Below, one piece after another: positions 7,325-27,402 of a stretch of 53,359 bases of DNA. The stretch spans positions 1-53,359 of the IMG/VR virus record IMGVR_UViG_3300045988_063706; one strand, written 5' to 3'. The notes below the pieces were generated by a model. The model saw nothing but the letters and a program-made list of their open reading frames with translations, did no database searches and was not told the DNA's origin. How positions within the stretch are numbered: position 1 is the stretch's first letter; the number at the start of each line of letters is the position of its first letter. The translations under genes and the position numbers were made by a program. Origin of the DNA: a virus.

Positions 7325-7334
7325 TTTCTTAGGG

Positions 7335-7369: not shown

Positions 7370-7390
7370 GCAAAATTTTGAAAATTTCTC

Positions 7391-7419: not shown

Positions 7420-7453
7420 ACCCATAGAAACAAAGAAACGGAGGTTTCACACT

Positions 7454-8805: not shown

Positions 8806-9075
8806 GTCGCAGTCTTTAGCAAGAACCCATTTCTCAAGGAACGGCTCAGTCGTTACTCGTTTGACCCATATAGAATCAGCGGTGGTGAATCTGACTTTCA
8901 ATGCAGGTTTTCCACTCTTTTTATTTCTGCCGGTTGCTATCACTTTTGCAAGGTCATACCCATACCGAACTCGGGCGATTTTCTTCTCCGGGTTTGTTAC
9001 GCATACCGGAGCGGCAACAGTGTCTCCGACTTTGAACTTAGTCTCCAAAAGTGTTCCCCTCCTTTTCCATGACAT
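8797..9075 (-). CDS. Hypothetical protein (92 aa)
   Basis: Last ORF of the minus-strand arm. Overlaps the end of the SNF2 gene. Confidence 0.5.
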   Translation of the reverse strand: MSWKRRGTLLETKFKVGDTVAAPVCVTNPEKKIARVRYGYDLAKVIATGRNKKSGKPALKVRFTTADSIWVKRVTTEPFLEKWVLAKDCDKI

Positions 9076-10531
9076 ATTCTACAATGTCCTTTTTGAGTCG
9101 GACTGCTTCGATTATGGTGGAGTCTATGGTTTTAGAGCCGTCATGCAGGTCTGCGACAAGGTGGATATAGAATACCGGCCGAGTTTGTCCAGGTCTGTGA
9201 ATTCGCTTCTTGCTTTGCTCATACAGGGCCAGCCGGTCGGTCATGGTATAATACACCAGATACCGGGCCTTTGTAAAGTCAGCGGATTCAGAGCCTTTGT
9301 AGAACTGAACCCCGAGAACGGTGGTCTTACCGGCTTGCCAGTCAGCCTCCGTGTCTTCCTTTCCCGATAGCTCACTGTATTTCCGTCCTGAGGCTTGACA
9401 GGCCGTCCTTACTTGCCGTAGGTCATACGCATATTGGGCAAACACTACAACAGGCTCTGAGGGGTCCAGAGAATCCAGTATATCGGTTAGAACTTCCTGT
9501 CGGCTTGTGTCCAACCGGAATATCTTCTTTTCCTCTATGTCGTTCACTGTACTAACGAACCCGCTTGCGATTTGCCGCTTTCGTATCTGCATAGTCAGGG
9601 CGTTCTCTGCCTCGCAATACCATTCACCATTTCTTAAGACCCCGTCCTCGCACATTTTTCTATAGACCCGTGAGGCTTTTTCAGAGAGCCGGAAATGCCG
9701 AATGCGGTTGTTTTGCTTTGGCAGTTTTACACTGGATGGAATTTTGAATGCTATGGAGTAAACCCGCTCTCGCAGTTCATCGAGGTTTTTATATGGTTGA
9801 TGCTTGTCAAGAACGGTATAGCCAACAGCCATAGACCGCCGGAGGTCGACGTTCTGATACCGCTCTTTGAACAGGGTGAAATTCGTGCCAAATATCGACG
9901 GGTCAAGAAACCTGTATTGAGCATATACGTCCATCGGGCTTTCTGCGAGTGGTGTACCTGTAACAAGGTATCGGTCTGAGACCTTTCTACCGAGACGAGC
10001 GAGTGCTCTACTACATTTACTCGCCGGGGACTTTATGCGGTGACTCTCGTCGCAAATGACGCAATCAATAGGGACGGTCTTCCGCAACAGGTATTGAATA
10101 AACTTGTCACGCCAGACGCCCTCGTAGTTTACAAGTAGGACTAAAGTCTCGCTCGATGGACACTGAGGACGACGTGACAGCCTTTGTTGGACGTCCTGTA
10201 CCTTTTTGGGGGTAGGCTTGCCGGACAGGTTGAGGACGTTCTGAGGACGAAGTAGGGAATGGAGCCTAAACTGCTTCTCCCACACTTCACAACCCTTATT
10301 CGTGCAAACAATCAAGACCAGTTTGTAGCCTTTGTTGACAATCATATCAATCATGACTTTGCTCTTGCCGGTTCCCATATCTGTATAGAGAGCGGCTTGC
10401 TTGCGCTCCATCATGAATTTCAATGCGAGTAACTGATGCTTCCAGGGTTTGGTCTTGAACTTCAATCCGTCTATTTCAATGAGGGGATTCTTACCCATGA
10501 TACGCACCCATTGTCTTCGGGGAATACCCAT
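9038..10531 (-). CDS. SNF2-family (SF2) helicase
   Basis: Walker A DMGTGKSKV, DEAH-like CDESHRIK, LVTGTPL, and C-terminal helicase motifs QSKKRIHRPGQTRPV. The start could instead be 10498. Confidence 0.85.
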   Translation of the reverse strand: MGIPRRQWVRIMGKNPLIEIDGLKFKTKPWKHQLLALKFMMERKQAALYTDMGTGKSKVMIDMIVNKGYKLVLIVCTNKGCEVWEKQFRLHSLLRPQNVLNLSGKPTPKKVQDVQQRLSRRPQCPSSETLVLLVNYEGVWRDKFIQYLLRKTVPIDCVICDESHRIKSPASKCSRALARLGRKVSDRYLVTGTPLAESPMDVYAQYRFLDPSIFGTNFTLFKERYQNVDLRRSMAVGYTVLDKHQPYKNLDELRERVYSIAFKIPSSVKLPKQNNRIRHFRLSEKASRVYRKMCEDGVLRNGEWYCEAENALTMQIRKRQIASGFVSTVNDIEEKKIFRLDTSRQEVLTDILDSLDPSEPVVVFAQYAYDLRQVRTACQASGRKYSELSGKEDTEADWQAGKTTVLGVQFYKGSESADFTKARYLVYYTMTDRLALYEQSKKRIHRPGQTRPVFYIHLVADLHDGSKTIDSTIIEAVRLKKDIVEYVMEKEGNTFGD

Positions 10532-10833
10532 TCCCCGGTCTGGTTTGTGTCAATGTACTTTACAAGGGTCATGACGCTCAATTTGCTATATGCAACCATA
10601 ACGACGGCCCCTGCGCTTCTCCATTTTTCGAGGTTGTGGTTTTGCTTTGCGCTTGCCTTGTTTTTATGGTCAGGGGTTTTGACTTCAATTCTGAGGGTTC
10701 GCCCCCGGTAACAAGCATTGATATCGGCTCGACCGGAGGCGGAACTTGACCCTTTTAACTTTTCAGCCCTGCAATGAGGGAGAGAGTTTAGATACCTCAG
10801 GATTGACCCCGTGATACTGCCCTCAAGAGCCAT
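10471..10833 (-). CDS. VRR-NUC domain nuclease
   Basis: GRADINACYRGRTLRIEVKTP matches the VRR-NUC G.PD....G....IEVK core. I trimmed the track ORF to the ATG at 10833 (MALEGS...). Confidence 0.7.
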   Translation of the reverse strand: MALEGSITGSILRYLNSLPHCRAEKLKGSSSASGRADINACYRGRTLRIEVKTPDHKNKASAKQNHNLEKWRSAGAVVMVAYSKLSVMTLVKYIDTNQTGEWVFPEDNGCVSWVRIPSLK

Positions 10834-11239
10834 TGTGGACCCCCTTGCCGAGAGTAAAGCGCAACCCCAAACGCTCAGCCCAAAAACTGGGAGACATAGT
10901 GTGCGGAATGGCCTTGTCATCAATGTAGAGGTCAGCATATACTTTCCTCGTATCACTGTTGAACATTTGCTGGACTTCTGCGAGGTTCTCGTTCACGGCG
11001 TCAAACTCAAGGCCCCGCACCCTGCAAAAGTCAACGGCGTCCCACAGTGGCTGACCATCTCTGGATGACCACAGAATGAGCCGAATGCCCTGCGCCTTGA
11101 GTTGATTGCAGAGGTCGAACATTTCATAGTTCGGGTCGCCTATCTCGGGGAACTTATCTTGCACAAGGGTTCCGTCAAAATCAACGGCAACGATTTTCGG
11201 CAAGGTGTTCATCTCGGTTTTAGAAACTTTGTTTTGCAT
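10823..11239 (-). CDS. HAD-superfamily phosphatase (nucleotidase-like)
   Basis: Motif I VAVDFDGTL and the downstream YIDDK. Small cap-less HAD typical of phage 5-prime nucleotidases. Confidence 0.65.
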   Translation of the reverse strand: MQNKVSKTEMNTLPKIVAVDFDGTLVQDKFPEIGDPNYEMFDLCNQLKAQGIRLILWSSRDGQPLWDAVDFCRVRGLEFDAVNENLAEVQQMFNSDTRKVYADLYIDDKAIPHTMSPSFWAERLGLRFTLGKGVHNGS

Positions 11240-11615: not shown

Positions 11616-12416
11616 TTATCTTACAAGGTTAGGAACCTGCTGAGGGATAGGACAGGCCCCGCCGTCACAGTGAGCAGAATGCTTTTCCCTCCACTCATCC
11701 AGACTGCGCTCATACAGGTGCAGGCTCCCGGCGAAATGGGTATAGGTTCCGATATCAACCCCGAGCCGAAATGCAAGCAAAATCTGGAAACAAGTGAATG
11801 AGAAAACATCATACGGGAACCCGGTCCACAGGTCATTGGAGCGCATATAGGTCGTCGCATGGAGTTTTCCGTCCCGGATTAAATACTGGAGCGCAACGGT
11901 GCAAGGGACGTCTTTTGTGGGGAATGTGTTGTAGTCCTCGGCATCCTTGATATGGATAACTGCCTGACGGCTGAGCGGGTTCTTGGTCAGGGCCTCAACC
12001 ACATACTCGAATTGGTCAAACCCGAACCGCTCAAAGATGCGCTGACCGTATGCAGAATTGACAGTCACGCCATCGTCAGACATACGCTCCCAAACCTTGG
12101 AGAATACGCTGATATCCTTGAGCCGGTTAGAGCCGGACAGATACCACAGCAGTTCCCCCACGGCGTACCGCATGGGCATTCTCCGGTCGTCGCTCGTAAC
12201 GATATTTCGGGTCGGGTCATTGATTACCGTGATAGCGTTCAGGCACTCAGCAACGACAGCCCCGTCACGAGAGGGGTCATTCTTACCGGCCTCAGCCTGT
12301 TTGTGGAACATATCGAACCACTCCTGCCACGCCTCATTGACCGTCCTGGTCTCAACCAGAATACCAGTCGGGGTCAGGGTCCCGCCATTCATGGGGATAT
12401 TGCATACGTCACTCAT
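11616..12416 (-). CDS. Thymidylate-synthase-fold pyrimidine C5 transferase. It has Asp at the base-discriminating position, so it is a candidate dCMP hydroxymethylase or methylase.
   Basis: Strong RBS GAAAAGGAGGAAAACGGATATG at 12416. VPCTVALQY (catalytic Cys), YMRSNDLWTGFPYD, SLHLY. The Asp lies 31 residues after the Cys, where E. coli ThyA has Asn177 and T4 gp42 has Asp179. Confidence 0.75.
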   Translation of the reverse strand: MSDVCNIPMNGGTLTPTGILVETRTVNEAWQEWFDMFHKQAEAGKNDPSRDGAVVAECLNAITVINDPTRNIVTSDDRRMPMRYAVGELLWYLSGSNRLKDISVFSKVWERMSDDGVTVNSAYGQRIFERFGFDQFEYVVEALTKNPLSRQAVIHIKDAEDYNTFPTKDVPCTVALQYLIRDGKLHATTYMRSNDLWTGFPYDVFSFTCFQILLAFRLGVDIGTYTHFAGSLHLYERSLDEWREKHSAHCDGGACPIPQQVPNLVR

Positions 12417-12879
12417 ATCCGTTTTCCTCCTTTTCAAGTTTGGTTCCTGCAAAGTTGGCGTCATACCGGATGACCGGCAAAATACTCTCCGCCATTAGTC
12501 CCTCGAAGCGACTGAGCAGTTCCGGGACGGGGATGAGGGTAACTTCACCCCTTGCCGCTAAACGCTCCATGATGAGTCCCTCAGGAGCCGTGACGAGGAT
12601 TACCTTGCCCTCGGCGTCAAGTATGCGAGCCTCAAGCCGGTGCAACTCCTCTTTTGTGATATGCCGCTCCTCTTTCTTTTGGTACACGAACTGACCGTAG
12701 CAGAACCGGTCAGCAATAATGTTCCGGGTCATAGCCGCCGAAATGATACTGTCGAAAAAGTCATAATCGTTCGGGGTTTTGGCGGTGCAATGAACGATAT
12801 CAGCGTTCAGCAGTTTGGAAAGGAACTTTGCAAGTGTAGTCTTGCCAGTTCCGTCACAGCCCTCGAGAACAACCAGCAT
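12409..12879 (-). CDS. Thymidylate-kinase-like dNMP kinase
   Basis: VLEGCDGTGKTT P-loop and the DRFCYGQFVYQ motif (Tmk DR..S..AYQ). 156 aa. Confidence 0.7.
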   Translation of the reverse strand: MLVVLEGCDGTGKTTLAKFLSKLLNADIVHCTAKTPNDYDFFDSIISAAMTRNIIADRFCYGQFVYQKKEERHITKEELHRLEARILDAEGKVILVTAPEGLIMERLAARGEVTLIPVPELLSRFEGLMAESILPVIRYDANFAGTKLEKEENGYE

Positions 12880-13305
12880 TCAATTCACCCCCGTTGAACC
12901 CCATCCGCCTCTGGACTTATCAGGGAGGGTTTCTACCTCTGTGAATTCGACCTCAGGCTGGAGAGGGTAAATCATAAATTGACAGATGCGCTCATTCTTT
13001 TCGATGGTGACGTCCCGTGTAGCATAGGCAAAGAAACCCCATACGTCGTCATTCCCACAGAAAGAATTCTCAAAAACCCCGATGGAGTTTGCTTGCAAAA
13101 GACCTGTCCGCTTGAATGTGCTGGAGCGGGGCGCAAGTATGGCTCCATACCCCTCAGGGAGTTTCATGGACACGCCGAGCGAAATAAGGGCCGATTCTCC
13201 TGCTTTCAGGGTAACACGCTCAGCGGCCCGGAGGTCAATCCAGTCACCGACAGGGGTTTTCTTCGGCAACTCAACATCGGTGTGCCGCTTGATTAAAATG
13301 TTCAT
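12880..13305 (-). CDS. dut: dUTP diphosphatase (trimeric dUTPase)
   Basis: GYGAILAPRSS, GVFENSFCGNDDVWGF and a C-terminal RGGWGSTG. Confidence 0.9.
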   Translation of the reverse strand: MNILIKRHTDVELPKKTPVGDWIDLRAAERVTLKAGESALISLGVSMKLPEGYGAILAPRSSTFKRTGLLQANSIGVFENSFCGNDDVWGFFAYATRDVTIEKNERICQFMIYPLQPEVEFTEVETLPDKSRGGWGSTGVN

Positions 13306-14348
13306 GACTTCCTCCGTTTCTTCTTGCCCTTTTTGGGTAGGTTCAGGTTATCGGCACAGGTGATGCCGGTTTCCTTTTCCCAGTCTCTCGCCCGGAGTAC
13401 AGTGAGCGGCTCGTGCTTCTCCAGAACGATATCGTAGTCCTCCTCAGTGGGTTCCTCCATTTCCTGCTTGCCTAAATGGTCAGGCAACAGGCCCTCCCTC
13501 ATGGGGATATGGTCACACACGTTACAGGGGAAGAAAGTCCGATGGTCATGGAACAGAATGCGCCGAGCGGCCTCATACCGAGGATGCCGCCACATATCGT
13601 CAAAACACTTTACCTCCGGGTCCATGCAGTTGACAACAGGGTATTGACCCCGGAAGTCCTGACAGCACATAGCAACCCATCCATCCCAGCGGAAAGACAT
13701 CTCCCGGAAAATGCGGGAGCATACCCGGTCAGAGTAGTCAGTCCGGGGAGGCATACCAGCCCCACAGTGATTCGTCAGTTTGCGGGAAACACAAATCTCC
13801 TCTTCCTCAATAGCGGGGATGATGAGGAGCCGATGCTTCTTGTACTGCTTCGGAGCATACAGGGGGACACCCTTTTGCATACGGACGAATTCAACATGGG
13901 TTCCAGTCTCTTCCTCGTACTTGTCCAACAGTTCTTGGATTTCATCATCGTCAAACTTGCTGTCCTTGTACTCGTCCAGAGTTACGTCGTTCAACCCGGC
14001 GTCAAACATTTTGCAAATAGCGTTGAGGTCTTTGCGAACCCCATAGCCATTCGTCAAAATCTGGACCCAGTGAGTGGGGAGAACCTTGCGAATGAGTTTA
14101 ATGCACGAATAGAAGTTCGGATGCAGGGCGTTCTCCCCATGCCCCGCAATCAGGATGCGAGGGTTATACCCACTCTCCGCAATCAGTTCGCACTCACGGC
14201 GGAGGACATCCTTGCTGATGAAATGCAGTTTGCGCTCAAACCCGTTAGAACCGCAAAAGAAACAAGAGCGGTTGCAACCCTGAACGAGTTCGATTTGAAC
14301 CGTGTTCGGCTTGTAAAAAGCCGAGTTTCTGTACTTCTTTTTCTTCAT
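13302..14348 (-). CDS. Radical SAM enzyme with a SPASM/twitch-like C-terminal Cys cluster
   Basis: QGCNRSCFFCG (CX3CX2C, nt 14251..14280). C-terminus VCSRIFREMSFRWDGWVAMCCQDF...FFPCNVCDH. Lys-rich tail. Confidence 0.85.
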   Translation of the reverse strand: MKKKKYRNSAFYKPNTVQIELVQGCNRSCFFCGSNGFERKLHFISKDVLRRECELIAESGYNPRILIAGHGENALHPNFYSCIKLIRKVLPTHWVQILTNGYGVRKDLNAICKMFDAGLNDVTLDEYKDSKFDDDEIQELLDKYEEETGTHVEFVRMQKGVPLYAPKQYKKHRLLIIPAIEEEEICVSRKLTNHCGAGMPPRTDYSDRVCSRIFREMSFRWDGWVAMCCQDFRGQYPVVNCMDPEVKCFDDMWRHPRYEAARRILFHDHRTFFPCNVCDHIPMREGLLPDHLGKQEMEEPTEEDYDIVLEKHEPLTVLRARDWEKETGITCADNLNLPKKGKKKRRKS

Positions 14349-14351
14349 CTC

Positions 14352-15311
14352 TTACCACCTTACGATGACCGGCTTGGACTCATGGAGTTTATGGTACTGT
14401 TGCCAGTTGATGTCCCCGAACTTATACTGACCATCAGGGAACTTGAATGTTTCCCTTAGATAATGCCGTATCTCCATCTCCATGAGGCCATCATATTCCA
14501 GTTTGTGGAGATGCCGGTTCTTGTCCGGGTTATGCGGGTCACGAACGACCGAGGCAACTTGGTCGTCAATGTAGTCGTAGCACAGGCACGGAATATTAAA
14601 GCAGTCATAACCATTCTGGAGAACCTCTGCGGCGAACCCGATGTCATCTCCATGGAGGTTGAATGCGTCGGGCATTCTTATCCCCGCTTTCTTGATACCT
14701 TTCATATTCAGTATCTTGGTCTGACGAGGAGTAGGGCCTTTGTCTATCTGATACTTGATATCAGCGAGGTCCGCATGGTTTGAAAACCGCTGTTTCCGTA
14801 TGTTACCGAGCAGGACGCTTGGATGCTCTCTAAAGACCTCTCGTGCTATGCGCCCCGTCAACTGCAAAACTTTTTGAGGAATTAAGGGGTCATCTTCCCA
14901 GTCCTTGACCCCGGTGTGCATACTACATTTTTCTCCTGAACCGTTTCGCCCGGTATAGAGGAACTGGAGATACTTGATGTCATCATCCATATCCATAATG
15001 CAGGGCAAATGGTTTTCAATGGCATAGTCCATTATGAACTGACGTGTACTGCCTACTCCGGAGACTGCGCCCTTGGGAATGGGAACCATGTTCATCCCAC
15101 GTTTGAGGAGTTTGCGGTTTGCCTTTTTATAGGCCGCATACTGTTCCTCCCGCACAACGATGAAGACACGCTCAAGGGCCTCGTCAGTGAACAGAGGCAG
15201 GATTTTCTCGCCAGTAACAAACTCAGGCCGATTATAGGAGGGTATGAATACGAATGGCAGGTCTTTCTCAGTGGTCTCGTTGAGAATGCGCTCCATCTTA
15301 CTGCGCTTCAT
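14352..15311 (-). CDS. GT-A-fold glycosyltransferase-like protein (DXD type), candidate DNA or nucleotide glycosyltransferase
   Basis: RBS AAAAGGAGGCTGACCCATG. FVFIPSYNRP first strand, then CIMDMDDDI about 85 residues later. The family assignment is tentative. Confidence 0.5.
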   Translation of the reverse strand: MKRSKMERILNETTEKDLPFVFIPSYNRPEFVTGEKILPLFTDEALERVFIVVREEQYAAYKKANRKLLKRGMNMVPIPKGAVSGVGSTRQFIMDYAIENHLPCIMDMDDDIKYLQFLYTGRNGSGEKCSMHTGVKDWEDDPLIPQKVLQLTGRIAREVFREHPSVLLGNIRKQRFSNHADLADIKYQIDKGPTPRQTKILNMKGIKKAGIRMPDAFNLHGDDIGFAAEVLQNGYDCFNIPCLCYDYIDDQVASVVRDPHNPDKNRHLHKLEYDGLMEMEIRHYLRETFKFPDGQYKFGDINWQQYHKLHESKPVIVRW

Positions 15312-15368: not shown

Positions 15369-16085
15369 TTAGTCGTCCTCTTCCCAGTCGTCATCCTCGT
15401 CATCGTCCTCGTCGTCCTCCTCATCGGAAGACTTCTTGGACTTCTTTGCCGGGGCTTTCTTCTTGGCGGGAGGGGCTTTCTTGGACTTGCGCTTGGGGGC
15501 GGGTTCCTCATCCTCATCCTCGTCCTCATCGTCTTCGTCCTCTTCCTCGTCCTCGTCATCATCCTCAGGCTCAGGCTTCTTCTTTGCCGGGGCTTTCTTG
15601 GCGGGAGTCTTCTTGGCGGGGGCTTTCTTCTTGGGGGCCTCCTCCTCTTCCTCCTCGTCATCGGTATCGTCCTCATCCTCATCATCGAGGTCCTCGTCCT
15701 CAACCTTGCCGCCCTTTCCGGCCTTGTAATAGTCGGAAATCTTGGCTCTGGTCTGGCCGTTGTATTCCTCCCAGAAAACCTCGATGTCGCAGACCTTTCC
15801 AATCAGCTTGTCCAGGTCAATCTTGAGTTTGCCGTCGGCTTTCATGCCGATAGCCTGGAGGAATGCCTTGAACTTCCACAGGGCCTTGTCGGCCAGAACG
15901 AACGACTCGAACACGGCGGAACCCTTGTCCTCACCCTTGGTGATTTCGAACTTGAACTGGAGCATATCGTCCCCGCCCTGAGAGGTCTTCTCCAGGATTT
16001 CGGCGACCTTTGCGGTGTGAATGCCCTCGCTCGCCTTGGTGTAACTCTCTACACCAGTAAAGTCCAGTTTCTTAACTCTTGCCAT
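15369..16085 (-). CDS. DUF669-like phage ssDNA-binding protein with a long block-polyampholyte C-terminal tail
   Basis: The N-terminal ~125 aa (GIHTAKVAEILEKTSQGGDDMLQFKFEITKGEDKGSAVFESFVLADKALWKFKAFLQAIG) fit the DUF669 pattern found beside Sak4-like ATPases. The tail alternates poly-D/E blocks with KKAPAKK blocks. Confidence 0.65.
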   Translation of the reverse strand: MARVKKLDFTGVESYTKASEGIHTAKVAEILEKTSQGGDDMLQFKFEITKGEDKGSAVFESFVLADKALWKFKAFLQAIGMKADGKLKIDLDKLIGKVCDIEVFWEEYNGQTRAKISDYYKAGKGGKVEDEDLDDEDEDDTDDEEEEEEAPKKKAPAKKTPAKKAPAKKKPEPEDDDEDEEEDEDDEDEDEDEEPAPKRKSKKAPPAKKKAPAKKSKKSSDEEDDEDDDEDDDWEEDD

Positions 16086-16100: not shown

Positions 16101-16298
16101 TTAAAAATTATATGTCTTAACAGATACCGAATCACACGGGAGCAGGTCCACGCACTGACGGAAAACCTTGCCCATGATTTCCGGCCCTGTCTTGACTACA
16201 CCAGAACCACGCCGAATCTCTCTGACGGTTGTAGGCTTGCCATCCTTATCACGATTGTAGATGACACCCTTTGCCCGGAATTGAACGTACTCAGCCAT
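16101..16298 (-). CDS. Hypothetical protein (65 aa)
   Basis: Packed between the ATPase and SSB genes. Confidence 0.5.
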   Translation of the reverse strand: MAEYVQFRAKGVIYNRDKDGKPTTVREIRRGSGVVKTGPEIMGKVFRQCVDLLPCDSVSVKTYNF

Positions 16299-17040
16299 CC
16301 TTTTCCCCTCCCATCAGACCGAGTTTACTGAGTTTTGCAAATGAGGGGTTTATCATGACGGCCGGAACCTTTACTTCCTTCGGGGTTTGCAGTTTGGTCC
16401 AATAATAGGGGTTCGGCCCGAGATGCGCCGCATACCGAACAACAGTCTTTTCAACCCCATCCTCAACGACCTCTTTCTTGAGGCGAGTGGTGTGGAACCC
16501 ATAGTTCGCCATTCCCTCCAGATAGGTTCGAGCGCCCTTTGTGGTGCTCGGCCTTGCGTCAGGTAGGATTTCATCCTCCATGCCCTCAATAGCGTCCATA
16601 GCCTCGTGACATGACAGGATTACCCATGTATAGAGGGAGAGTTTGTATGCGAGGCGAATGAGTTCCTCAGTCTCTGTCTTGAGGTCTCCCCACATTTGCT
16701 GAGTCATTTTCTTCTTTTTCTTGACAGCATTTTCGTCAATCCACACATTCGTGACCATGGAAAAGGTGTCCACAAAGACTGACTCGTACCCTGCGCCCTT
16801 TTCCTTAATGAGTTCCTTAAGAACCCCTTTGACGCTGTCAATGTTGTCTGCCCGGAGGCCACTGATATTCTTCTTGTTGCGAATGGTGTTGGAGCCATCA
16901 TCACCGACCTGGACATAGAGTTGCGGCTTGGGCCATGTGGAGCCGAACTCGGTTTTACCCGTGTTAGACTTACCCCATAGCACAACGAGTTTCCGCTGTC
17001 CTAAATCAGCGATATCCTTGACCCCGTCAAGATAGGCCAT
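16291..17040 (-). CDS. Sak4-like RecA-fold ATPase (AAA_24 type)
   Basis: Walker A LWGKSNTGKTEF and Walker B-like VFVDTFS. Sits in a Cas4-nuclease / ATPase / SSB recombination module. Confidence 0.75.
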   Translation of the reverse strand: MAYLDGVKDIADLGQRKLVVLWGKSNTGKTEFGSTWPKPQLYVQVGDDGSNTIRNKKNISGLRADNIDSVKGVLKELIKEKGAGYESVFVDTFSMVTNVWIDENAVKKKKKMTQQMWGDLKTETEELIRLAYKLSLYTWVILSCHEAMDAIEGMEDEILPDARPSTTKGARTYLEGMANYGFHTTRLKKEVVEDGVEKTVVRYAAHLGPNPYYWTKLQTPKEVKVPAVMINPSFAKLSKLGLMGGEKDG

Positions 17041-17053: not shown

Positions 17054-18097
17054 TTAGAATGGCTCTTCAACGTGTGCTTTATAGTACTCTGAGAAGAATG
17101 GGTCATAGGCCCTGCGCTCCTCATTCACTATATCCGGCCGAGGCTCAATAGTAAAGTTCCTCTCCATGAGATGCTCAAGGTTGCCCCCGGTGAGTTGTGC
17201 ATAGCAGATGTCACGATACTGACAGAAACTGCAATTTCGGGTCATGTTCTTGGTCTTGTTCTTTGCCCCGTACTTTGCTATCAGTTTTGCTTGAAACATA
17301 AAGCCGTCCCACGTGCCCTCCACCATTTGAGGGTCATACTCCTGTTCAACCCGAAAGAAGAACGCCGGTATATTCCCACGGAACTCCTCAGCCCTTGCAA
17401 GGGTTTCCTCATCGGTTATCCCATGCTCTTTACAGGCCCGGAGCCACGAATAGGGGGTTATCTGCTGATGCTTTGCCTCAGAAAATCGCTTGGACTTTTC
17501 CAGCCATACAGGTTGAGGGGCCGGACTGCTATGGATATAATCCCAGATTACCGACTTCGGTAAAATGCCGTATAAAATTTGAACCGCTTTCGCATAGAGA
17601 TTTTTCTGAATGTTCATGACGAGGGTATTGCTATCCGGTCGTCTGTTGAATGTTTTGTGCTCTCCAACTTTCAGAAACTTCTCTCCTGTACTGCGGCTCT
17701 TGCGCTTGTAGAGTTCATCAATCTTACCCTTGAAAACATAGGGTTCGCCCCTATGCTCAAACATAGGCAACTCGAACTCTTGCTCAGTTATGCTCGGAAC
17801 TGGGGCTTCCTTGTAGATGCGCCGGTAGTCGGCAAAAATACTGAACAGGTCCTCAAGGTAGTTTTCACCGAGTTCTGATTGCCATTGAGGGGGGATTTCG
17901 TAGTAGGTGTCACGAATGGTTTCCTTTGCCTCTTTGAGTGCTTTCTTGTCGTGCCTGACCTCAAGCAACTTGTGAAAGTCCGTACCGAAATACAACGGCC
18001 TTTGAGGTTTTGCAGGGCGCACCCCTAACTCATACCCGAGGAAATGTGCAAATGGGCATGACATCCAGGAGGCAACTCTTGAATAAGATATGTTCAT
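17054..18097 (-). CDS. PD-(D/E)XK nuclease, Cas4/RecB-like with an Fe-S cysteine set
   Basis: GKIDELYK (D-E-x-K), an N-terminal Cys (WMSCPF) and a C-terminal CSFCQYRDIC. Confidence 0.8.
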   Translation of the reverse strand: MNISYSRVASWMSCPFAHFLGYELGVRPAKPQRPLYFGTDFHKLLEVRHDKKALKEAKETIRDTYYEIPPQWQSELGENYLEDLFSIFADYRRIYKEAPVPSITEQEFELPMFEHRGEPYVFKGKIDELYKRKSRSTGEKFLKVGEHKTFNRRPDSNTLVMNIQKNLYAKAVQILYGILPKSVIWDYIHSSPAPQPVWLEKSKRFSEAKHQQITPYSWLRACKEHGITDEETLARAEEFRGNIPAFFFRVEQEYDPQMVEGTWDGFMFQAKLIAKYGAKNKTKNMTRNCSFCQYRDICYAQLTGGNLEHLMERNFTIEPRPDIVNEERRAYDPFFSEYYKAHVEEPF

Positions 18098-18822: not shown

Positions 18823-20535
18823 TCAATGCGTACCCCATGGGCCGACCCCTATATCACAGTCAAGCGGCACTTTCAGTTCGACGCCGAAAGTGTCCATAGC
18901 GGCGGGGTGAAGCATTATCCGTCGAATTTCATCGACAATCCAGTCTTTGCATTCCTCAGGGAATTCACCGAGGATGGAGTCATGCACAGTCCCAACGATT
19001 TTCAGGCCCTCTCCCTTGAGTTCCTTGTGGATTTGCGTGGCGGCTGATATGAGCAGGTCTGACCCCGTACCTTGTACCGGCGTATTGATTGCTCGTCTCT
19101 CCGCTGAGGCCTTTTCCCACTTATTCGCAGAGTATATCAGCGGGAGTTTACGGAAACGCCCGAACTTATTATAGACCCCGCCCATAGCCTCACAGAGTAG
19201 GGCTTGCTCATGATGCCATGGTAACAGACGGGAATATTTTGCGAAAAACTTTTCCCGAAACTCAGTCGCCTCAGCGAGTGTGAAGATTACTCCATAGGAG
19301 TTATATGCGTAGTCAACGAATTTCTTTGCCAGCATACCATAGAGGAACCCGAAATTCACGGCTTTTGCCTTGCCTCGCTCCTCCTTTGTAGGCTCTCTCC
19401 CCCCGGTCATGAGTTTCGCCGTAGTGGTATGAATGTCGCCTCCATGCAGATAAATGTCCAGCATGGTCTTATCATTCGCATAATCGGCCGCTATCCGTAG
19501 CTCCAATTGAGAATAGTCAGCCTCAAAGAACAGCCTCCCCGGAGGGGCCTTGTAAATGGCTCTCACGTCCTTTGTGCGAGGCACTTGCTGGAGGTTTGGG
19601 TTTTGGCATGAGGTTCGTCCTGATACCACGTTGGTCAGGTTGAACGACGGGTGAATGCGCTTGTCAGGACCGAGGTCTCCCTCCCAGCGGTTGAGGAACA
19701 TTTTGTTCAGGGTATTCGCCGCCTTATAGTCCAGGATGAGTTGAGGCAGTTTATGGCCCTTTGCCGCAAGCCGTTTGAGGACAGCGGCGTCCGCTGAGGG
19801 TTTGCCGGTTTTCTTTGACTTCTTGAGTATGGGCAAGCCCTCTTTGTCGAATAGGACCTCTGCTACTTGCCCCGAACTGTTCCAGTTGATATCATACCTT
19901 GACTTGAGTTGTGCAAGGCAGTCTTTCTCAATCTTTGCATATTTCTTTTGGCATTCATGCAGAGCAGGAATATCCACATAGGCCCCATTCCGCTCGACGT
20001 CACGATACATGAGATAGGCAGGGCGCAACAACTCACGATAGATTTTCATTTGTACGTCCGTCATCTTCTCAAAAAAGAACTGAAAGAGTTCCCATGTATA
20101 GCGCACGTCTTTTCGCAGATATGGGCGAATGCTTTTTGACTTGCCGTTGGTCTTCTCTTTCTTTGAGATATCCCAGTCAGGGACCCCGAGGTACACTTGC
20201 GCCATCTTTTTCAGGCCATGCTCAGCGGCGAGGTCATAGGCCGTACCCATCAGCATGACGTCATCGTGAATGGGCAATTTGATTCCGAACTTTGCCTCGA
20301 TGAACAGAGTATCAAATTTACCGTTCTGGAATATAGTTTTCATCTTATCCGAGCGCATACGCTCAACCGCTTGCATAAAGGCTTTCACATCTGAATGAGA
20401 AGCCATATTGAACGTCTTTATCTTGCATTCGGAATTGACGTCTTCTGCCAGCCCTATTCCAATCCACGTTATCTCGTCCTTGAACCGATTGAGACCGGTG
20501 GTTTCGATATCTATGGTTGCATACTTGTATTTCAT
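18823..20535 (-). CDS. Family A DNA polymerase with a 3'-5' exonuclease domain
   Basis: ATIDIETTGL (Exo I), SCQNPNLQQVPR, ADYSQLELRI (motif A), RGKAKAVNFGFLYGM (motif B), VHDSIL (motif C). Confidence 0.95.
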   Translation of the reverse strand: MKYKYATIDIETTGLNRFKDEITWIGIGLAEDVNSECKIKTFNMASHSDVKAFMQAVERMRSDKMKTIFQNGKFDTLFIEAKFGIKLPIHDDVMLMGTAYDLAAEHGLKKMAQVYLGVPDWDISKKEKTNGKSKSIRPYLRKDVRYTWELFQFFFEKMTDVQMKIYRELLRPAYLMYRDVERNGAYVDIPALHECQKKYAKIEKDCLAQLKSRYDINWNSSGQVAEVLFDKEGLPILKKSKKTGKPSADAAVLKRLAAKGHKLPQLILDYKAANTLNKMFLNRWEGDLGPDKRIHPSFNLTNVVSGRTSCQNPNLQQVPRTKDVRAIYKAPPGRLFFEADYSQLELRIAADYANDKTMLDIYLHGGDIHTTTAKLMTGGREPTKEERGKAKAVNFGFLYGMLAKKFVDYAYNSYGVIFTLAEATEFREKFFAKYSRLLPWHHEQALLCEAMGGVYNKFGRFRKLPLIYSANKWEKASAERRAINTPVQGTGSDLLISAATQIHKELKGEGLKIVGTVHDSILGEFPEECKDWIVDEIRRIMLHPAAMDTFGVELKVPLDCDIGVGPWGTH

Positions 20536-21830: not shown

Positions 21831-23783
21831 TTACTCCTTTTTACTCCTCTTGACGAGTTCCTTAGTAGTTACTCCAATCCAGATAGGTTCACGGGTTCTG
21901 GACTTGTCTCTGCCCTCATGGAAACCGAGGGAACGCATATTTCTCATGAAGCCGTGCTTCTTATGGCTCTCCCGGCCGGACGCATTACAGAATTCGAAAT
22001 ACGCCGAGTAGAGTTCCTCTTTCCGTATGCTATACTCCGGCCCGGTTGCACACTTTTTCTTGATGAATGCGTGGATGCTATCAGAGTCCTGACGCAAGCC
22101 CTCAACCATGCGATTACTCACACGAGTTCTCGGGATTTCCTGCATGGGCAACAGGCTCAGCAAATACGGGATAATCTCGCAAACACTTTCCTCTGAGCAC
22201 AGGTCATCAACATACTCGTTATTGAGGAAAAGTTCGTTATTCATGTAGAGAATTCTCATACGCTTATAGAACGCATTTGATTTCTCCTCCAACTGGAGCG
22301 GAAGTTGGTTAAATGAGAAAATCAGTTTACAGAATGGCACAAAGAAGAACGGTTCTTTACCTTTCTTTTCGTGCATAATCAGGTCTCCGCCGGTGATTTT
22401 CTTGAGGTTCTCAATGCTGGATAGCGGGAGCGAGCCATTATCGCCGCACGAGTTGAGCAACCTGTTATAGAGTTGCGACGGATAGAACCGATGACTCAAT
22501 TCGTGCATACTCAGGGCGGAGGTATTCTCATGCCCTATCATGGTCTCAATGAACCGTAAAAGAACCGACTTTCCCGTGTTGGACTGCCCACATAAAATCA
22601 TAAAGGTCTTGAGGCCATGGTCCAGCGTCAAGCAGTATGCCATATAGTCCAATATCATCTTGACGTCCTCTTTTGCGAGCCGGGTTTTCTTGAAGAACTG
22701 ATATAGCCGGGTCTCCGTGAATGGCTTATACAGGCCGACCTCATGCGGGATTTGCAGGGTCTGGAGGTACTTGCTATCATGAGGAATGAGTTTGGCTTGC
22801 TGGATGTCCCATACCCCATTCTTAAAATTGATGAGGTTCTTATCCCGGTTGAGTTCGCTCGGGTCCTTTTGGATACGAGTGTCATCGACTATGAGCCGAT
22901 ATACCTCCATTATACGGGCCTGAGTGATGAAACTGTCCAGCATAATCATTTCACGAATGGTATTTCGCACAGAACTGGAGGCCTCTACATACACACCGTC
23001 CCGGTACTGGAAGCACTCCCCTCCAAGAACAAACGTGTCACCACGGTTCACAAAGTAGTCACAAATAGCACGAGCATTGATATTCGTTGGATTGCCCTTG
23101 CTATTGTAAATGAGATACGGGTTTTCCCCTTGCTCAGCCGCTTCATATTTACGAGTGTTCCGCAGGATTTTCTCGAGTTCTGCCTCAGCCATGGGGTCTT
23201 CAAAGACGACCTCGTTTATGACGTGAGCCATTTCCTCAATCTGTTCCTCGGACGCACCCCGGTTCTTGTATGCCATCAGGTGAGCGAAAAGGGTAGCATT
23301 CCGGCCGTCACCATTTTTCAACCCGAGGAGGCTTTCCTTTCGGTTTATCATCGGGGTGAATTCGAGCGGTAACTCTGCAACCGTTTTCCGCTTATTGAAG
23401 CGACGGTTCTCTGTACCCCATGGGAGGAGGACGTACCCCTTATTCGCACAACGAAAGTCGCACTTCAAGCCACAGGGCAAAACCATTCCCACTCGCTGAG
23501 GAAACTCCTTATCTGTCTTAAAGTACAGATGGAGGCCTTTTGGGGTCTTGCACATGAGAGTCTTGAGACCGAGCCGCTTTACAATTTCAAGGGCTTGCTC
23601 CTTACCCTCATCAATGTCTACGACAATATACCCGGACCGCACCCACCATCCAATCTGACCTCCGGCGAAAACATGGGCCTCAGCCGCCTTGAGGCTTACA
23701 ATGGCAGAGTCAATCCGTTTCTTGTCAGAACAGCGGACATACGAATCTTGTCCAATGAGAGAGTCAAACTCCTGCAACTTCAA
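21831..23783 (-). CDS. Bifunctional primase-polymerase / SF3 (D5/P4-type) replicative helicase
   Basis: Prim-pol motifs YIVVDIDEG and TPKGLHLYF. C-terminal P-loop LCGQSNTGKSVL with the flanking D5_N/P4-primase-like region. Confidence 0.85.
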   Translation of the reverse strand: MKLQEFDSLIGQDSYVRCSDKKRIDSAIVSLKAAEAHVFAGGQIGWWVRSGYIVVDIDEGKEQALEIVKRLGLKTLMCKTPKGLHLYFKTDKEFPQRVGMVLPCGLKCDFRCANKGYVLLPWGTENRRFNKRKTVAELPLEFTPMINRKESLLGLKNGDGRNATLFAHLMAYKNRGASEEQIEEMAHVINEVVFEDPMAEAELEKILRNTRKYEAAEQGENPYLIYNSKGNPTNINARAICDYFVNRGDTFVLGGECFQYRDGVYVEASSSVRNTIREMIMLDSFITQARIMEVYRLIVDDTRIQKDPSELNRDKNLINFKNGVWDIQQAKLIPHDSKYLQTLQIPHEVGLYKPFTETRLYQFFKKTRLAKEDVKMILDYMAYCLTLDHGLKTFMILCGQSNTGKSVLLRFIETMIGHENTSALSMHELSHRFYPSQLYNRLLNSCGDNGSLPLSSIENLKKITGGDLIMHEKKGKEPFFFVPFCKLIFSFNQLPLQLEEKSNAFYKRMRILYMNNELFLNNEYVDDLCSEESVCEIIPYLLSLLPMQEIPRTRVSNRMVEGLRQDSDSIHAFIKKKCATGPEYSIRKEELYSAYFEFCNASGRESHKKHGFMRNMRSLGFHEGRDKSRTREPIWIGVTTKELVKRSKKE

Positions 23784-24568: not shown

Positions 24569-25036
24569 TCAGTTCCTCACGTCCGGGGCGTCCCAGTCCT
24601 TTTCCCAAATGACAGTGACACCAGAGTCCTCGAAAATACGTTGGGTCTCCTCACTGATTTTCTGTTGCCGCCCATAGATGACCCTCGTGATACCGGCCGA
24701 GACAATGGCACGAGCGCAAGCCTCGCACGGATAGCGAGTGACAAAAATGGTTGTCCCGGTGAGGTCTTCTCTTGCGCCACAGATAGCGTCAACCTCGGAA
24801 TGGATTGCCCTGCAATCAGCCGGGGAACGGTGAGTCTTGTCATTGTCCCCATACTTCTCAATCCGGAGACAGCCCCGATACTTGCAGAGGTCAGGGATTG
24901 CCCGGTTCGCACCAAAACTCACCGCTCGGCCATGCTTCACAATAACGGCCCCGACCGTGACCTTAGTGCAACCAGACATGATTCCGGCATAAATGTTCGC
25001 CATGTCTAACCAGTTACTCCACCCCATTACTCGCAT
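24569..25036 (-). CDS. dCMP deaminase (cytidine/deoxycytidylate deaminase fold)
   Basis: RBS GGAGGAGCATCACAATG. HSEVDAI (H-x-E) and YPCEACARAI (PCxxC) zinc motifs. Confidence 0.9.
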   Translation of the reverse strand: MRVMGWSNWLDMANIYAGIMSGCTKVTVGAVIVKHGRAVSFGANRAIPDLCKYRGCLRIEKYGDNDKTHRSPADCRAIHSEVDAICGAREDLTGTTIFVTRYPCEACARAIVSAGITRVIYGRQQKISEETQRIFEDSGVTVIWEKDWDAPDVRN

Positions 25037-25418
25037 TGTGATGCTCCTCCTCTCTCATAATCCCATCGGCTTGAATGTTGTTCTGGATGCGCTCAACGAT
25101 AACGGCGATGAATGTGGTATTCGTGACCTTGCCGCTGTTCATGCTCACCACATTCCCGAAATACTTCTTGCGAGTGTCCTCCGCCATGTTATTGAATGCG
25201 CTCTCAATAGCGTGGCGAATGGCTCTCTCAACTCTGGACGTGGTAGAGTCCACTTCCTTTGCAATATCAGGGTACAGTTTCCCGGTCATGTTCCGCAGGT
25301 ACTCCCGGTCATTGTAGACCATCTCAACTCCGACCTTGAGATAGTCCCACCCCAAAAGACCGGGGTTTATGCCAACATCCAGCAGGGTATCAGAAATCAT
25401 CCATTGTACGGAAGTCAT
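25014..25418 (-). CDS. Stand-alone Spo0A C-terminal (DNA-binding) domain protein, no receiver domain
   Basis: RBS AAAAGGAGGAAAACTGATG at 25418. [43 protein letters not shown]...[15 protein letters not shown] is near-collinear with B. subtilis Spo0A [43 protein letters not shown]...KPTNSEFIAMVADKL. Confidence 0.9.
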   Translation of the reverse strand: [134 protein letters not shown]

Positions 25419-26518
25419 CAGTTTTCCTCCTTTTGGTAGTTCCACGGCTCAGTCGTGGGATGATAGCAGTTGCGGGGACGACCCGTACCATTCACAGCCT
25501 TGATATATTTGCTCAACTCACAGAAGCAATTCTCAAGGGCCATGACATTCAGACAGCGGTCTCCCTCGGGGCGATACTTGAACAGTTTCTCAGGGTTCCA
25601 TCCAAACAGACGAGCATAGTCCCCGGCCTGGAGCGCAATAAAGTACTCGTCAATGTTGTCCCGGAGGAAGAACAGGGCCTCCTCATGGGTCATACCGCCG
25701 TAGTCACTGAACACAAGGTCAAGACCCCGCTTGCACCCCGGCCCCGCAACAGTAAACTCATTCTCGGAGAACGGAAAGTCCTCAATATAGGTCAGGTCAA
25801 CGAATACCTGATAGGCAAGGAATGAGGCAAACCCACGAATCTCCCGGATGATATTGTATGCGGCCTCCTGGTCTTTGGCTTTCATCAGGCGGCGGAACAC
25901 CTTGCGCTCTTTTAACCATGGACCGATATGGAATACCCGCAGGGGGATGTCCGGCTCGTAGTCCTTGAATTTCTTCCCCATTTCCTCAGACGGAGCACGA
26001 CTAAAGCCCTCCCCGTCCGGGAATTTCCATGCGTACTTTGTGCCGCCCTGATTATATGCGCTGGACCACCACTTGCGGTCAGGGCTCTCAATGAGGAGCC
26101 GCTTATAGGTCGGGCGAACTGCTTCCTTTAGGGCCAGCCCATCATAGATTTCATCAGCCGACCACGGCCCCCCGAAATCCGTGAATGTGTTCGGGTTATT
26201 CCAGGACCGGAGCAGGAATGTATTCAGCACCTTTTCCTCCAGAGTGAGTTCAGGGTTCGTGGAAACCAGTTCAATCAGCGCACGGCTGACACGGTCATCC
26301 TCCCGGAATACGTTGGTAAACTTGTACTCCTTAAGAACCGGGTTCTTAGTCCACGGCTGAGGTTTACCGAGGATATCCTTGCGAACGTGAATACGATACC
26401 GCTCAACAATGAAGTCCCGGAGATGCGCCGTGTTCTCCTCATTGAGGTATGGTTCCGCCTTTCTGATGCGCTTTTCGTTGACGCCACAGTAGGCAACGTC
26501 TCTCGGCTTTGTCTGCAT
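25418..26518 (-). CDS. Candidate DNA base hypermodification protein (alpha-glutamyl/putrescinyl-thymine pyrophosphorylase-like, aGPT-Pplase-like)
   Basis: 366 aa. PQPWTKNPVLKEYKFTNVFREDDRVS matches my memory of the PWT..pIL..YRF.NV.RE.DrvT signature of that family, and FLAYQVFVDL lies downstream. From memory only, not searched. Confidence 0.45.
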   Translation of the reverse strand: MQTKPRDVAYCGVNEKRIRKAEPYLNEENTAHLRDFIVERYRIHVRKDILGKPQPWTKNPVLKEYKFTNVFREDDRVSRALIELVSTNPELTLEEKVLNTFLLRSWNNPNTFTDFGGPWSADEIYDGLALKEAVRPTYKRLLIESPDRKWWSSAYNQGGTKYAWKFPDGEGFSRAPSEEMGKKFKDYEPDIPLRVFHIGPWLKERKVFRRLMKAKDQEAAYNIIREIRGFASFLAYQVFVDLTYIEDFPFSENEFTVAGPGCKRGLDLVFSDYGGMTHEEALFFLRDNIDEYFIALQAGDYARLFGWNPEKLFKYRPEGDRCLNVMALENCFCELSKYIKAVNGTGRPRNCYHPTTEPWNYQKEEN

Positions 26519-26796: not shown

Positions 26797-27402
26797 TCAA
26801 TACCCCAGGATTTTGGACACACACATATCCGCATGATGAGTCCACAGCACGTTCGGACAGACCTTGATAGCGGCCTCAAACTCATTCCACTTGTCGGTCT
26901 CGTATGCGCCCATGTGCCAGCGGATGCACAAGGCCTCCTCACGGGTGAGAGGGACTTCAAGGAGAAGTTTGCACAGGGAATCAGCACCGTGACCTCCGAA
27001 ACCGGCAACTCCATCCACATGGGCATAGATAGGTTTCAGGCCGTTAGAGTCGTTGTCCTCATGGGTTCCAACAATTCTATAAGCCCCGATTTTGCAGAAG
27101 TCATGGAAAAGCCCTACCAGCAACGGAGAACAGGGCCGCTCCCATTTGAGATGCTCAGCCTCGGTAAAGTGCATGAGATATTGAGCCACGCTAAACGAGT
27201 GCTTGAACAGTCCTCCAGGGAATGCCCCGTGATACTTAGTGGAAGCAGGGGCCTCAAAATAGTCCGTCCCGTCCACAATGACAGAAAGATGATTTGCGAG
27301 TTCAGCAGAGACACCCTCAACAGTGAGGGCCTCCATGAACTGTTTGTAGTTCTCGTCATACACATCCGGAAAGTCCGGGCAGTATTTACCGAGTACTTTC
27401 AT
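26797..27402 (-). CDS. HD-domain phosphohydrolase
   Basis: KYHGAFPGGLFKHS, GLFHDFCK, GHGADS, IRWHMG, HHADM. Confidence 0.8.
   Translation of the reverse strand: MKVLGKYCPDFPDVYDENYKQFMEALTVEGVSAELANHLSVIVDGTDYFEAPASTKYHGAFPGGLFKHSFSVAQYLMHFTEAEHLKWERPCSPLLVGLFHDFCKIGAYRIVGTHEDNDSNGLKPIYAHVDGVAGFGGHGADSLCKLLLEVPLTREEALCIRWHMGAYETDKWNEFEAAIKVCPNVLWTHHADMCVSKILGY

Follow-up and report, generated by a model that had tools for sequence, protein, structure and literature searches.

A clade-1 aGPT-Pplase (PF18723) encoded with a cytosine-type hydroxymethylase and a TAGT-family glycosyltransferase in a near-complete phage genome

The window analyzed here (IMG/VR record IMGVR_UViG_3300045988_063706, positions 1 to 53,359) is a 53,359-nucleotide stretch of viral DNA that encodes, at 25418..26518 on the minus strand, a protein of exactly 366 amino acids (hereafter the target) belonging to Pfam family PF18723, formerly named clade 1 of the alpha-glutamyl/putrescinyl thymine pyrophosphorylases (aGPT-Pplases). 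The open reading frame (ORF) starts with an ATG that has a GGGGA Shine-Dalgarno sequence 8 nt upstream and the TGA of the preceding gene 3 nt before it, and the annotated start is credible. Independent gene calls on two metagenomic contigs of ~53.5 kb yield the same 366-aa product with 97% identity, which indicates that the window is a near-complete phage genome. Homologues amount to 901 in a 90%-clustered database and to 3,070 representative clusters in an exhaustive search at E ≤ 1e-3. The two motifs quoted in the original prediction, PQPWTKNPVLKEYKFTNVFREDDRVS and FLAYQVFVDL, occupy residues 53-78 and 233-242 of the target, and its claim that the ORF is real is borne out by the exact coordinates, the ribosome-binding site, the independent gene calls and a family far larger than chance would allow. 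A megablast comparison of 20–32 kb of the window with the INPHARED phages gave no DNA-level match, and only protein comparison was informative.

A profile search against the aGPT-Pplase clades of Pfam, which the original prediction had proposed as a check, returned a significant match to PF18723 (HMUDK_hel; full name '5-hmdU DNA kinase, helical domain', 5-hmdU being 5-hydroxymethyl-dU) with an E-value of 1.3e-56 and 192.5 bits (cutoff 25), spanning target residues 33-342 and profile positions 7-275 of 281. No second family was found in the Pfam scan at E ≤ 1, including PF18724, the family of the amino acid:DNA transferases (AADT). PHROG 2396 (unknown function) matched the target at 9e-73, while neither the NCBIfam profiles nor phmmer against PDB sequences gave a match. 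The clade naming was pieced together from Lee et al., UniProt and the annotations of sequence records: PF18723 appears as the old clade 1 in records such as the 'aGPT-Pplase1 domain-containing protein' of Klebsiella phage PWKp5, a member in BFVD is labeled 'Pplase1 alpha-glutamyl/putrescinyl thymine pyrophosphorylase clade 1', and NCBI names the homologue P0056 'putative DNA base hypermodification protein'. The best matches among annotated phages are Ackermannviridae proteins, namely gp160 (orf00160) of ViI, which is the counterpart of the target in that phage, and orf156 of CBA120, with 34.5–38.5% identity over 95% of the length in tblastn; identity to PaMx11 gp50, encoded between gp49 (5-hmdU DNA kinase) and gp51 (dUMP hydroxymethylase), is 25%. 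In control Pfam scans ViI gp160 and PaMx11 gp50 were recovered as PF18723, and PaMx11 gp46, a proven glycine:DNA transferase, as PF18724 ('ADDT, amino acid:DNA transferase'; 1.6e-27). SP10 gp186 consists of a PF18748 kinase domain (residues 35-193) and a PF18723 domain (residues 313-598), a fusion that explains the present Pfam name; PF18723 is likewise fused to genuine PF18748 DNA-kinase domains in P0149 and L058.

Judged from its sequence, the target is therefore a clade-1 aGPT-Pplase and a paralogue of the AADT enzymes, with orthologue-level relatives in ViI gp160, CBA120 orf156, PaMx11 gp50, M6 gp55 and the C-terminal part of SP10 gp186 (gp186C), a placement in which Pfam, PHROG, tblastn and the structural comparisons described below agree. 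The concern that the family assignment might be wrong can be dismissed at 192.5 bits. Membership of the aGPT-Pplases stands for the superfamily in the broad sense of Iyer and Aravind, and falls for the clade to which the cited activity belongs.

Records for this family and its partners carry a recurrent label: 5-hmdU DNA kinases (5-HMUDK) and PF18723 proteins are entered as 'terminase small subunit' in several GenBank records (PaMx11 gp49, M6 gp54 and the Klebsiella phages phi1_146021 and FKP14), and PHROG 800, which bears the same label, matches the target weakly (7e-9), which looks like a propagated mis-annotation. In M6 the gene directly after gp55 (gp56, L008:10383-10943) encodes a PF18757 protein (Nmad5, 'nucleotide modification associated domain 5'; 2e-33), a further uncharacterized partner in that cluster. 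A 795-aa protein of a T4-like phage, Q56ED1 (ORF233c of Aeromonas phage 31), shows a PF18723-like fold among the BFVD matches (probability 1.0, E 2.6e-5), and Aeromonas phage 31 may be another cytosine-modifying phage with this family.

Two paralogous 'aG/PT-PPlases' were described in thymidine-hypermodifying phages by Lee et al. in 2018 (PMC5889632). The same group showed in 2021 that a kinase puts a single phosphate on 5-hmdU and that the clade-2 proteins M6 gp51, ViI gp247, PaMx11 gp46 and PhiW-14 gp109 transfer glycine, serine or putrescine, the leaving group being monophosphate and not pyrophosphate (PMC8989533). The original prediction had credited the whole family with replacing a pyrophosphate on 5-hmdU by an amino acid or polyamine; this chemistry has been shown only for the PF18724/AADT clade, the clade-1 protein M6 gp55 being dispensable in the reconstitution, and pyrophosphate has to be replaced by monophosphate (PMC8989533). 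The kinase domain of SP10 is active without its PF18723 half (PMC8989533), which implies that PF18723 is more than a kinase appendage. SP10 makes glutamyl-thymidine (glutamyl-T), and a clade-2 gene was not detected there (PMC5889632 Table 3); hmU and hmC phages without hypermodification, such as SPO1 and T4, lack the family (PMC5889632). Clade 1 has stayed uncharacterized since 2013 because the clade-2 enzymes accounted for the known products. A literature search yielded no report of a DNA kinase acting on 5-hydroxymethylcytosine (5-hmC), nor of PF18723 tied to glycosylation.

An AlphaFold2 model of the target, based on a 57-sequence alignment, is all-alpha, with a pLDDT of 91.3 and a pTM of 0.90. 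Foldseek comparison with BFVD returned ten PF18723 models at probability 1.00 and TM-scores up to 0.87, the top matches including SP10 gp186, PhiW-14 C9DG43, phiRSL1 and a Microbacterium phage protein; AADT-domain proteins ranked after the PF18723 members, with probabilities of 0.90, 0.66 and 0.38. In the PDB the only credible neighbors were the PaMx11 gp46 structures 8z2n and 8z2m (probability 0.94 and 0.87). In the active site of gp46, Cys247 is the nucleophile at C6, and Glu243 and Thr244 are associated with the metal and with thymine O4 (PMC11472151); metal dependence of Pplase2 was confirmed in a 2026 paper (PMC13458397). When 137 PF18723 sequences were compared, profile against profile, with seven diverse AADTs, hhalign in local mode, the only mode in which the motif alignment was obtained, placed the target segment P-E-G-D-R-C-L-N-V-M-A-L-E329-N330-C-F-C333-E on P-L-G-D-R-P-V-N-I-Q-E-V-E243-T244-I-L-C247-K of gp46. 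C333 is thereby paired with Cys247, E329 with Glu243 and N330 with Thr244, in a weak alignment (E 1.1e-3, probability 21%) in which Thr is replaced by Asn or His.

The putative catalytic motif defined by this alignment and by conservation, G319-D-R-C-L-N-V-M-A-L-E329-N330-C-F-C333-E334-L-S-K337-Y338, is encoded at 25505..25564 (minus strand, as are all features of the window given below). Among the 137 members, C333 is kept in 131, E334 in 130 and K337 in 131, and E329 and N330 occur in 117 and 120, with Gln (16) and His (10) as the respective replacements. Conservation also marks the N-terminal signature F67-T-N69-V-F-R72-E-D-D75-R (26291..26320), quoted in the original prediction, of which F67, N69, R72 and D75 are invariant across all genomic contexts and each present in at least 129 of the 137 members (N69 in 129, R72 in 132, D75 in 134). 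Two further conserved segments, G229-F-A-S-F-L-A-Y-Q-V-F-V-D241 and A258-G-P-G-C-K-R-G-L266 (25721..25834), resemble helix-hairpins and may be HhH/GPD-like; D241 is found in 135 members, and F233, Y236, Q237, D241, G259, G261 and G265 are each at least 90% conserved. The target carries R40, F67, N69, R72, D75, R104, F233, Y236, Q237, D241, G259, G261, G265, C333, E334 and K337, each of them present in at least 90% of the 137 members. C262 and C331 were considered as key residues and discarded, not being conserved across the family. Conservation of this kind would fit an enzyme that attacks C6 covalently in the manner of AADT.

The remainder of the window was annotated as well. At 11616..12464 lies a gene for a ThyA-fold pyrimidine hydroxymethylase (Pfam Thymidylat_synt, 4e-28), whose best relative in the PDB is the CMP 5-hydroxymethylase MilA (2.7e-37); thymidylate synthases match at ~1e-19 and T4 dCMP hydroxymethylase at 3e-17. 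The selector position of the window enzyme is Asp (PYD, within GFPYDVFSF), as it is in MilA, while thymidylate synthase has Asn (PFN). An exchange of Asn and Asp at this position switches the preference between dUMP and dCMP, as represented by Asn229 of the L. casei thymidylate synthase and Asp179 of T4 gp42. In the 5-hmdU phages PaMx11 and SP10, the enzymes gp51 and gp188 have Asn in the selector column. With an Asp selector and MilA as the closest protein in the PDB, the window enzyme is dCMP-directed, as had been supposed. Its ORF and the neighboring kinase gene overlap by 56 nt, and the homologues (235–250 aa in relatives) have nothing that corresponds to the first ~40 residues; translation probably begins at an internal Met, beyond the listed ATG.

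The overlapping gene (12409..12879) encodes a small Tmk-like P-loop nucleotide kinase (LEGCDGTGKTT...DRF) with N-terminal dTMP-kinase matches in Pfam and NCBIfam, a match to PHROG 761 and YorR as its best PDB match. It is the sole kinase-like ORF of the window with an N-terminal Walker A motif, and neither a 5-HMUDK nor an AADT was found among the six-frame ORFs of the whole window, so that the concern raised in the original prediction over the missing 5-hmdU DNA kinase was justified. The possibility that the Tmk-like protein is a disguised 5-HMUDK was rejected: it has a Tmk signature, shows no similarity to the kinases of PaMx11, M6, P0149 and L015, and coexists with a true HMUDK in sister phages. 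Without a DNA kinase and an AADT in the window, the classical route from 5-hmdU through 5-PmdU to an amino-acid-modified thymidine cannot run here.

Next to the Tmk-like gene are genes for a dUTPase/dCTP-deaminase-fold enzyme (12880..13305; Pfam dUTPase 1e-14, DCD 6e-8; PHROG 135, 2.5e-37), a radical SAM/SPASM enzyme (13302..14348; Radical_SAM 9e-11, SPASM 5e-4) and a DNA glycosyltransferase of the TET-associated TAGT family (14352..15311; PF20691, 3.7e-9; PHROG 4519 and 842). No NCBIfam family reached its cutoff with the radical SAM enzyme, which may further modify the sugar or the base. Nearer to the target lie genes for a dCMP deaminase (24569..25036; dCMP_cyt_deam_1, 7.7e-15) and, two genes upstream, an HD-type metal-dependent phosphohydrolase (26797..27402; PHROG 28876, 1.1e-24). 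Pfam agrees with the earlier identification of the dCMP deaminase, the Tmk-like kinase and the ThyA fold. A cytosine-specific hydroxymethylase, a nucleotide kinase, a dCMP deaminase and a DNA glycosyltransferase are thus all present, each from a subfamily other than that found in T4.

Custom hidden Markov models were used to scan 53 IMG/VR loci around PF18723 homologues (29–80% identity). The dCMP deaminase gene, which adjoins in ~40 of 55 loci and is present in all PolA-anchored relatives, is the most constant neighbor of PF18723 in this phage group; other near neighbors are HD hydrolases (~24), TAGT-like proteins (~12), HMUDK (~9) and AADT (one). An HD gene (gp52) also lies near PF18723 in PaMx11, as does a MazG gene (gp161) in ViI. 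At loci around homologues of the window hydroxymethylase, all 80 of 80 enzymes were Asp-type. Flanks of ±10 kb span both modules only in PolA-anchored loci, and co-occurrence at the contig level was established for ~8 genomes.

Among these relatives the gene slot occupied by the glycosyltransferase varies. In two sister phages, L152 (whose PF18723 protein shows 80% identity with the target) and L154, the genes for PF18723 and dCMP deaminase are followed by those for HMUDK, a Tmk-like kinase and an Asp-type hydroxymethylase, with a dUTPase in addition in L152. An identity value of 36% obtained for L154 probably stems from an untrimmed ORF and was given no weight. The L152 kinase is a genuine PF18748 protein (34.5 bits, cutoff 27; 7e-29 to PaMx11 gp49) and fills the slot after the DUF669 gene that is held by TAGT and radical SAM in the window. 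Three further phages (L155-157) have the same gene set as L152 and L154 with TAGT replacing HMUDK. Both TAGT and radical SAM are found in the window and in L025/L094, radical SAM being absent from L155-157 and L107. All 18 of 18 conserved PF18723 positions are intact in both HMUDK-type and TAGT-type relatives. The characterized commercial 5-HMUDK accepts 5hmU and not 5hmC (PMC6457204), and the pairing of HMUDK with an Asp-type hydroxymethylase in the sister phages is consequently without a characterized precedent. The complete genome of the unrelated Microbacterium phage Carostasia encodes PF18723, an Asp-type ThyA-fold enzyme, TAGT (PF20691, 5.5e-11), a Tmk-like kinase and MazG, and neither HMUDK nor AADT was found in it; the combination without a DNA kinase thus recurs and is presumably a working one. 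An equally conserved PF18723 protein is kept whether the polymer-level cassette supplies a DNA kinase or a glycosyltransferase (the latter accompanied by radical SAM or not), always with a cytosine-type hydroxymethylase, which argues against a role bound to a single downstream chemistry.

Additional genes were seen in some of these relatives. The closest IMG/VR relative, an HMUDK-type sister phage (L070, IMGVR_UViG_3300035507_000073), encodes a protein of the Mom family (7199-7870, minus strand; PF25680, 2.4e-44), to which the adenine-modification enzyme of phage Mu belongs; its gene lies immediately outside the hydroxymethylase module, at a position where the window has no counterpart. PF18723-bearing contigs of 46–127 kb (L159-L165) are binned into 'Woesearchaeota' and 'Methanosarcinales' metagenome-assembled genomes (MAGs); they have the look of phage contigs, which leaves a binning error or the presence of PF18723 in archaeal viruses as explanations.

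Other genes of the window encode a SNF2 helicase (9038-10531), a DUF669 protein (15369-16085), an AAA_24 protein (16291-17040), a PD-(D/E)XK nuclease (17054-18097), PolA (18823-20535) and a D5-type primase (21831-23783). In one relative (L006:9878-13106, logan:ERR10101635_1164; PF18723 61% identical) PolA is interrupted by an intein/HNH element (Intein_splicing and HNH_3), and the polymerase region is split by another HNH gene. Beside the nucleotide-modification module, an HAD phosphatase-like protein (10823-11239) resembles the BT0820 family (NCBIfam 8e-30, below cutoff) and matches a PHROG annotated as 'phosphoheptose isomerase'; its activity might be that of a nucleotidase or of a phosphatase for sugar phosphates. 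A gene at 25014-25445, lying between those of the target and the dCMP deaminase, encodes a protein with the Spo0A C-terminal DNA-binding domain (Spo0A_C; PF08769, 8e-30), which occupies the same position in several relatives (L004-L006, L018-L020, L155-157) and could manipulate host sporulation control. The phage Spo0A_C gene, an NCBI-named homologue from a Niameybacter MAG and a 53.6-kb contig of a 'Candidatus Avilachnospira' MAG point to Lachnospiraceae-type Clostridia as hosts.

Comparison with characterized systems shows how the window differs from each of them. The PF18723 proteins of known phages (ViI gp160, CBA120 orf156, M6 gp55, PaMx11 gp50, PhiW-14 C9DG43 and SP10 gp186C) share with the target the full-length Pfam family, the 18 conserved residues and the all-alpha fold, and their phages share with the window a 5-hydroxymethyl-pyrimidine nucleotide enzyme and a nearby nucleotide phosphohydrolase gene. 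However, those phages have an Asn-type dUMP hydroxymethylase, 5-HMUDK and usually AADT, whereas the window has an Asp-type enzyme, neither of the latter two, and TAGT with radical SAM instead; the PF18748 kinase that is absent here is the usual partner of PF18723 by contextual habit and lies outside the Pfam definition. The three elements of the thymidine hypermodification system of Lee et al. 2018/2021, an Asn-selector hydroxymethylase, a 5-hmdU DNA kinase and a clade-2 transferase, are all missing from the window. The AADT proteins (M6 gp51, PaMx11 gp46, ViI gp247, PhiW-14 gp109 and SH-Ab 15599 Pplase2) are, like the target, encoded by phage DNA-modification genes, and in the weak profile alignment both would fit a C-terminal motif, G-D-R-x-[LV]-N-[VI]-x-x-[LV]-E-[NT]-x-x-C, that includes the catalytic Cys and the metal-binding Glu of AADT, but identity is ~12%, there is no profile membership, and phmmer of gp46 or gp51 against the target ORF gave E-values of at least 3.8. 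Unlike AADT, PF18723 has its own invariant Glu-x-x-Lys-Tyr after the Cys as well as the N-terminal FxNxxRxxD and R104 motifs. Moreover, AADT requires 5-PmdU produced by 5-HMUDK, which the window phage does not have. With the T4-type 5-hmC and TET/TAGT systems, on the other hand, the window shares an Asp-type hydroxymethylase, a nucleotide kinase, a dUTPase-fold enzyme, an HD hydrolase, a dCMP deaminase and a TAGT-family glycosyltransferase. Those systems have neither a PF18723 protein nor a radical SAM enzyme; the window kinase is Tmk-like and not gp1-like as in T4, and the window hydroxymethylase is nearer to MilA than to T4 gp42.

The reading that we favor, with confidence just short of an even chance, is that the PF18723 protein is an AADT-like Cys-dependent enzyme acting on a 5-hydroxymethyl-pyrimidine-derived base in phage DNA, most likely 5-hmC or its glycoside. 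The Asp-type hydroxymethylase, Tmk-like kinase, dUTPase, HD hydrolase and dCMP deaminase would form a pre-replicative set through which 5-hm-dCMP is made and, as in T4, 5-hmC is built into the DNA. A post-replicative cassette would follow, in which TAGT glycosylates 5-hmC and the radical SAM enzyme works alongside. The PF18723 protein would also act after replication, flipping the 5-hydroxymethyl-pyrimidine-derived base into its all-alpha pocket, where Cys333 would attack the pyrimidine C6 with the assistance of Glu329/Asn330, which would correspond to the metal/O4 site of AADT, and of the family-specific Glu334, Lys337 and Tyr338. Attack at C6 would make the C5-CH2-X substituent prone to exchange, elimination or reduction, and this role would be independent of the downstream cassette. 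The lack of a DNA kinase and an AADT makes 5-hmC or its glycoside, and not phosphorylated 5-hmU, the most likely substrate. One of the readings offered by the original prediction, that the homologue acts on a cytosine derivative, thereby gains real support from the gene context, namely from the Asp-type hydroxymethylase, TAGT and the missing DNA kinase. A wider proposition, that the range of PF18723 includes cytosine-derived bases and that 5-hmC DNA is remodeled at C5 directly, after glycosylation by TAGT or after phosphorylation by the HMUDK-family kinase of L152/L154, is put forward as a possibility of which we are doubtful.

One outcome compatible with such chemistry is the formation of a methyl group. 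All 5-hmdU hypermodifying phages convert leftover 5-hmdU to thymine at the polymer level, and M6 gp51 treated with borohydride yields thymidine (PMC8989533). Given that this step has no assigned enzyme and that a clade-1 protein is present in all such phages, clade 1 could, by our own inference, be the methyl-forming enzyme, in which case the product in a cytosine context could be 5-methylcytosine.

Several observations weigh against the favored reading. The previously studied PF18723 phages are all 5-hmdU phages, and the 12 of 12 selector-alignable ThyA-fold genes within 10 kb of PF18723 at the IMG/VR loci are Asn-type, often accompanied by HMUDK. In the absence of a kinase, the hydroxymethyl carbon bears no group that would obviously leave well. 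AADT is a distant homologue, as seen from the hhalign probability of 21% and from the superposition of the target on 8z2n/8z2m, with TM-scores of 0.31–0.41, an rmsd (root-mean-square deviation) of 9 Å and E about 0.05. Finally, no clade-1 activity has been demonstrated and the literature search found no paper giving clade 1 a function; M6 gp55 was omitted from the lysate reconstitution and the product was still formed, and ViI gp160 is absent from the 2021 Table 1 of functionally assigned proteins (PMC8989533).

The dispensability of the clade-1 protein in that reconstitution would be readily understood if PF18723 were a non-catalytic accessory that binds DNA, recognizes or flips the hydroxymethyl base and targets or regulates the kinase or glycosyltransferase, for instance by setting the sequence context. 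Such a role, which we consider unlikely, would fit the retention of unchanged conserved positions beside either HMUDK or TAGT, the fusion to kinases in several lineages (hence the Pfam name 'helical domain') and the modification of only ~20% of sites in vitro, in a sequence-dependent manner, by the known kinases. However, an active site is suggested by the near-invariant residues Cys-Glu-x-x-Lys-Tyr, Asp241 and Asn69/Arg72/Asp75, the weak profile alignment pairs this Cys with the catalytic one of AADT, and the SP10 kinase works without its PF18723 domain. Hairpin-like GxG/GPG motifs and the invariant Asp241 could alternatively belong to an HhH-GPD-type DNA glycosylase/lyase that removes canonical or unmodified pyrimidines, either for degradation of host DNA or for proofreading of phage DNA, a role that would suit any phage with a fully substituted pyrimidine. 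This is very improbable: the HhH matches in Foldseek, 3f10 (OGG) and 2yg8 (AlkA), are at noise level (probability ≤ 0.06), there is no PDB sequence match, the fusion to a DNA hydroxymethyl-base kinase is left unexplained, and the non-hypermodifying hmU/hmC phages SPO1 and T4 lack the family (PMC5889632).

The constancy of the dCMP deaminase beside PF18723 and the thymidylate-kinase type of the nucleotide kinase in the window raise the possibility of a classical pathway, in which the deaminase turns 5-hm-dCMP into 5-hm-dUMP, the DNA carries 5-hmU, and PF18723, as a pyrophosphorylase/transferase, displaces a phosphate of phosphorylated 5-hmU with an amine or hydroxyl nucleophile. It would agree with the HMUDK-family kinase of the sister phages L152 and L154, given that the characterized 5-HMUDK takes 5hmU and not 5hmC (PMC6457204), and with SP10, which makes glutamyl-T with PF18723 as its only Pplase-type domain. 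Nevertheless, the window has no recognizable DNA kinase, and its hydroxymethylase and all 80 related ones have the cytosine-type Asp. In phages that make 5-hmdU, dCMP deaminase feeds Asn-type enzymes directly, so that going by way of hm-dCMP would be an unnecessary detour. A T4-like hmC phage would be just as likely to have the deaminase, which there provides the dUMP needed to make dTMP; the classical pathway is accordingly regarded as quite unlikely.

The target is itself an ordinary member of a known, functionally uncharacterized family. What is new is the system context, that is, a cytosine-type hydroxymethylase and TAGT, with or without radical SAM, without a DNA kinase or AADT, and with an HMUDK swap in sister phages; the literature search found no description of it. 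Clade-1 Pplases occur in essentially all thymidine-hypermodifying phages and in thousands of metagenomic clusters, and this phage group, with its compact ~50-kb genomes of gut Clostridia phages, provides a natural experiment in which the role of the family can be tested. If the wider proposition about cytosine-derived bases were correct, there would be a cytosine branch of Pplase/AADT chemistry with hypermodified cytosines not yet described, and the HMUDK-family kinase of L152/L154, should phosphorylation precede the remodeling there, would be the first DNA kinase for 5-hmC. With a cytosine derivative as substrate, more kinds of DNA hypermodification would be known than now, and more DNA-modifying tools would be on offer, such as a 5-hmC-directed kinase or transferase for epigenetic sequencing.

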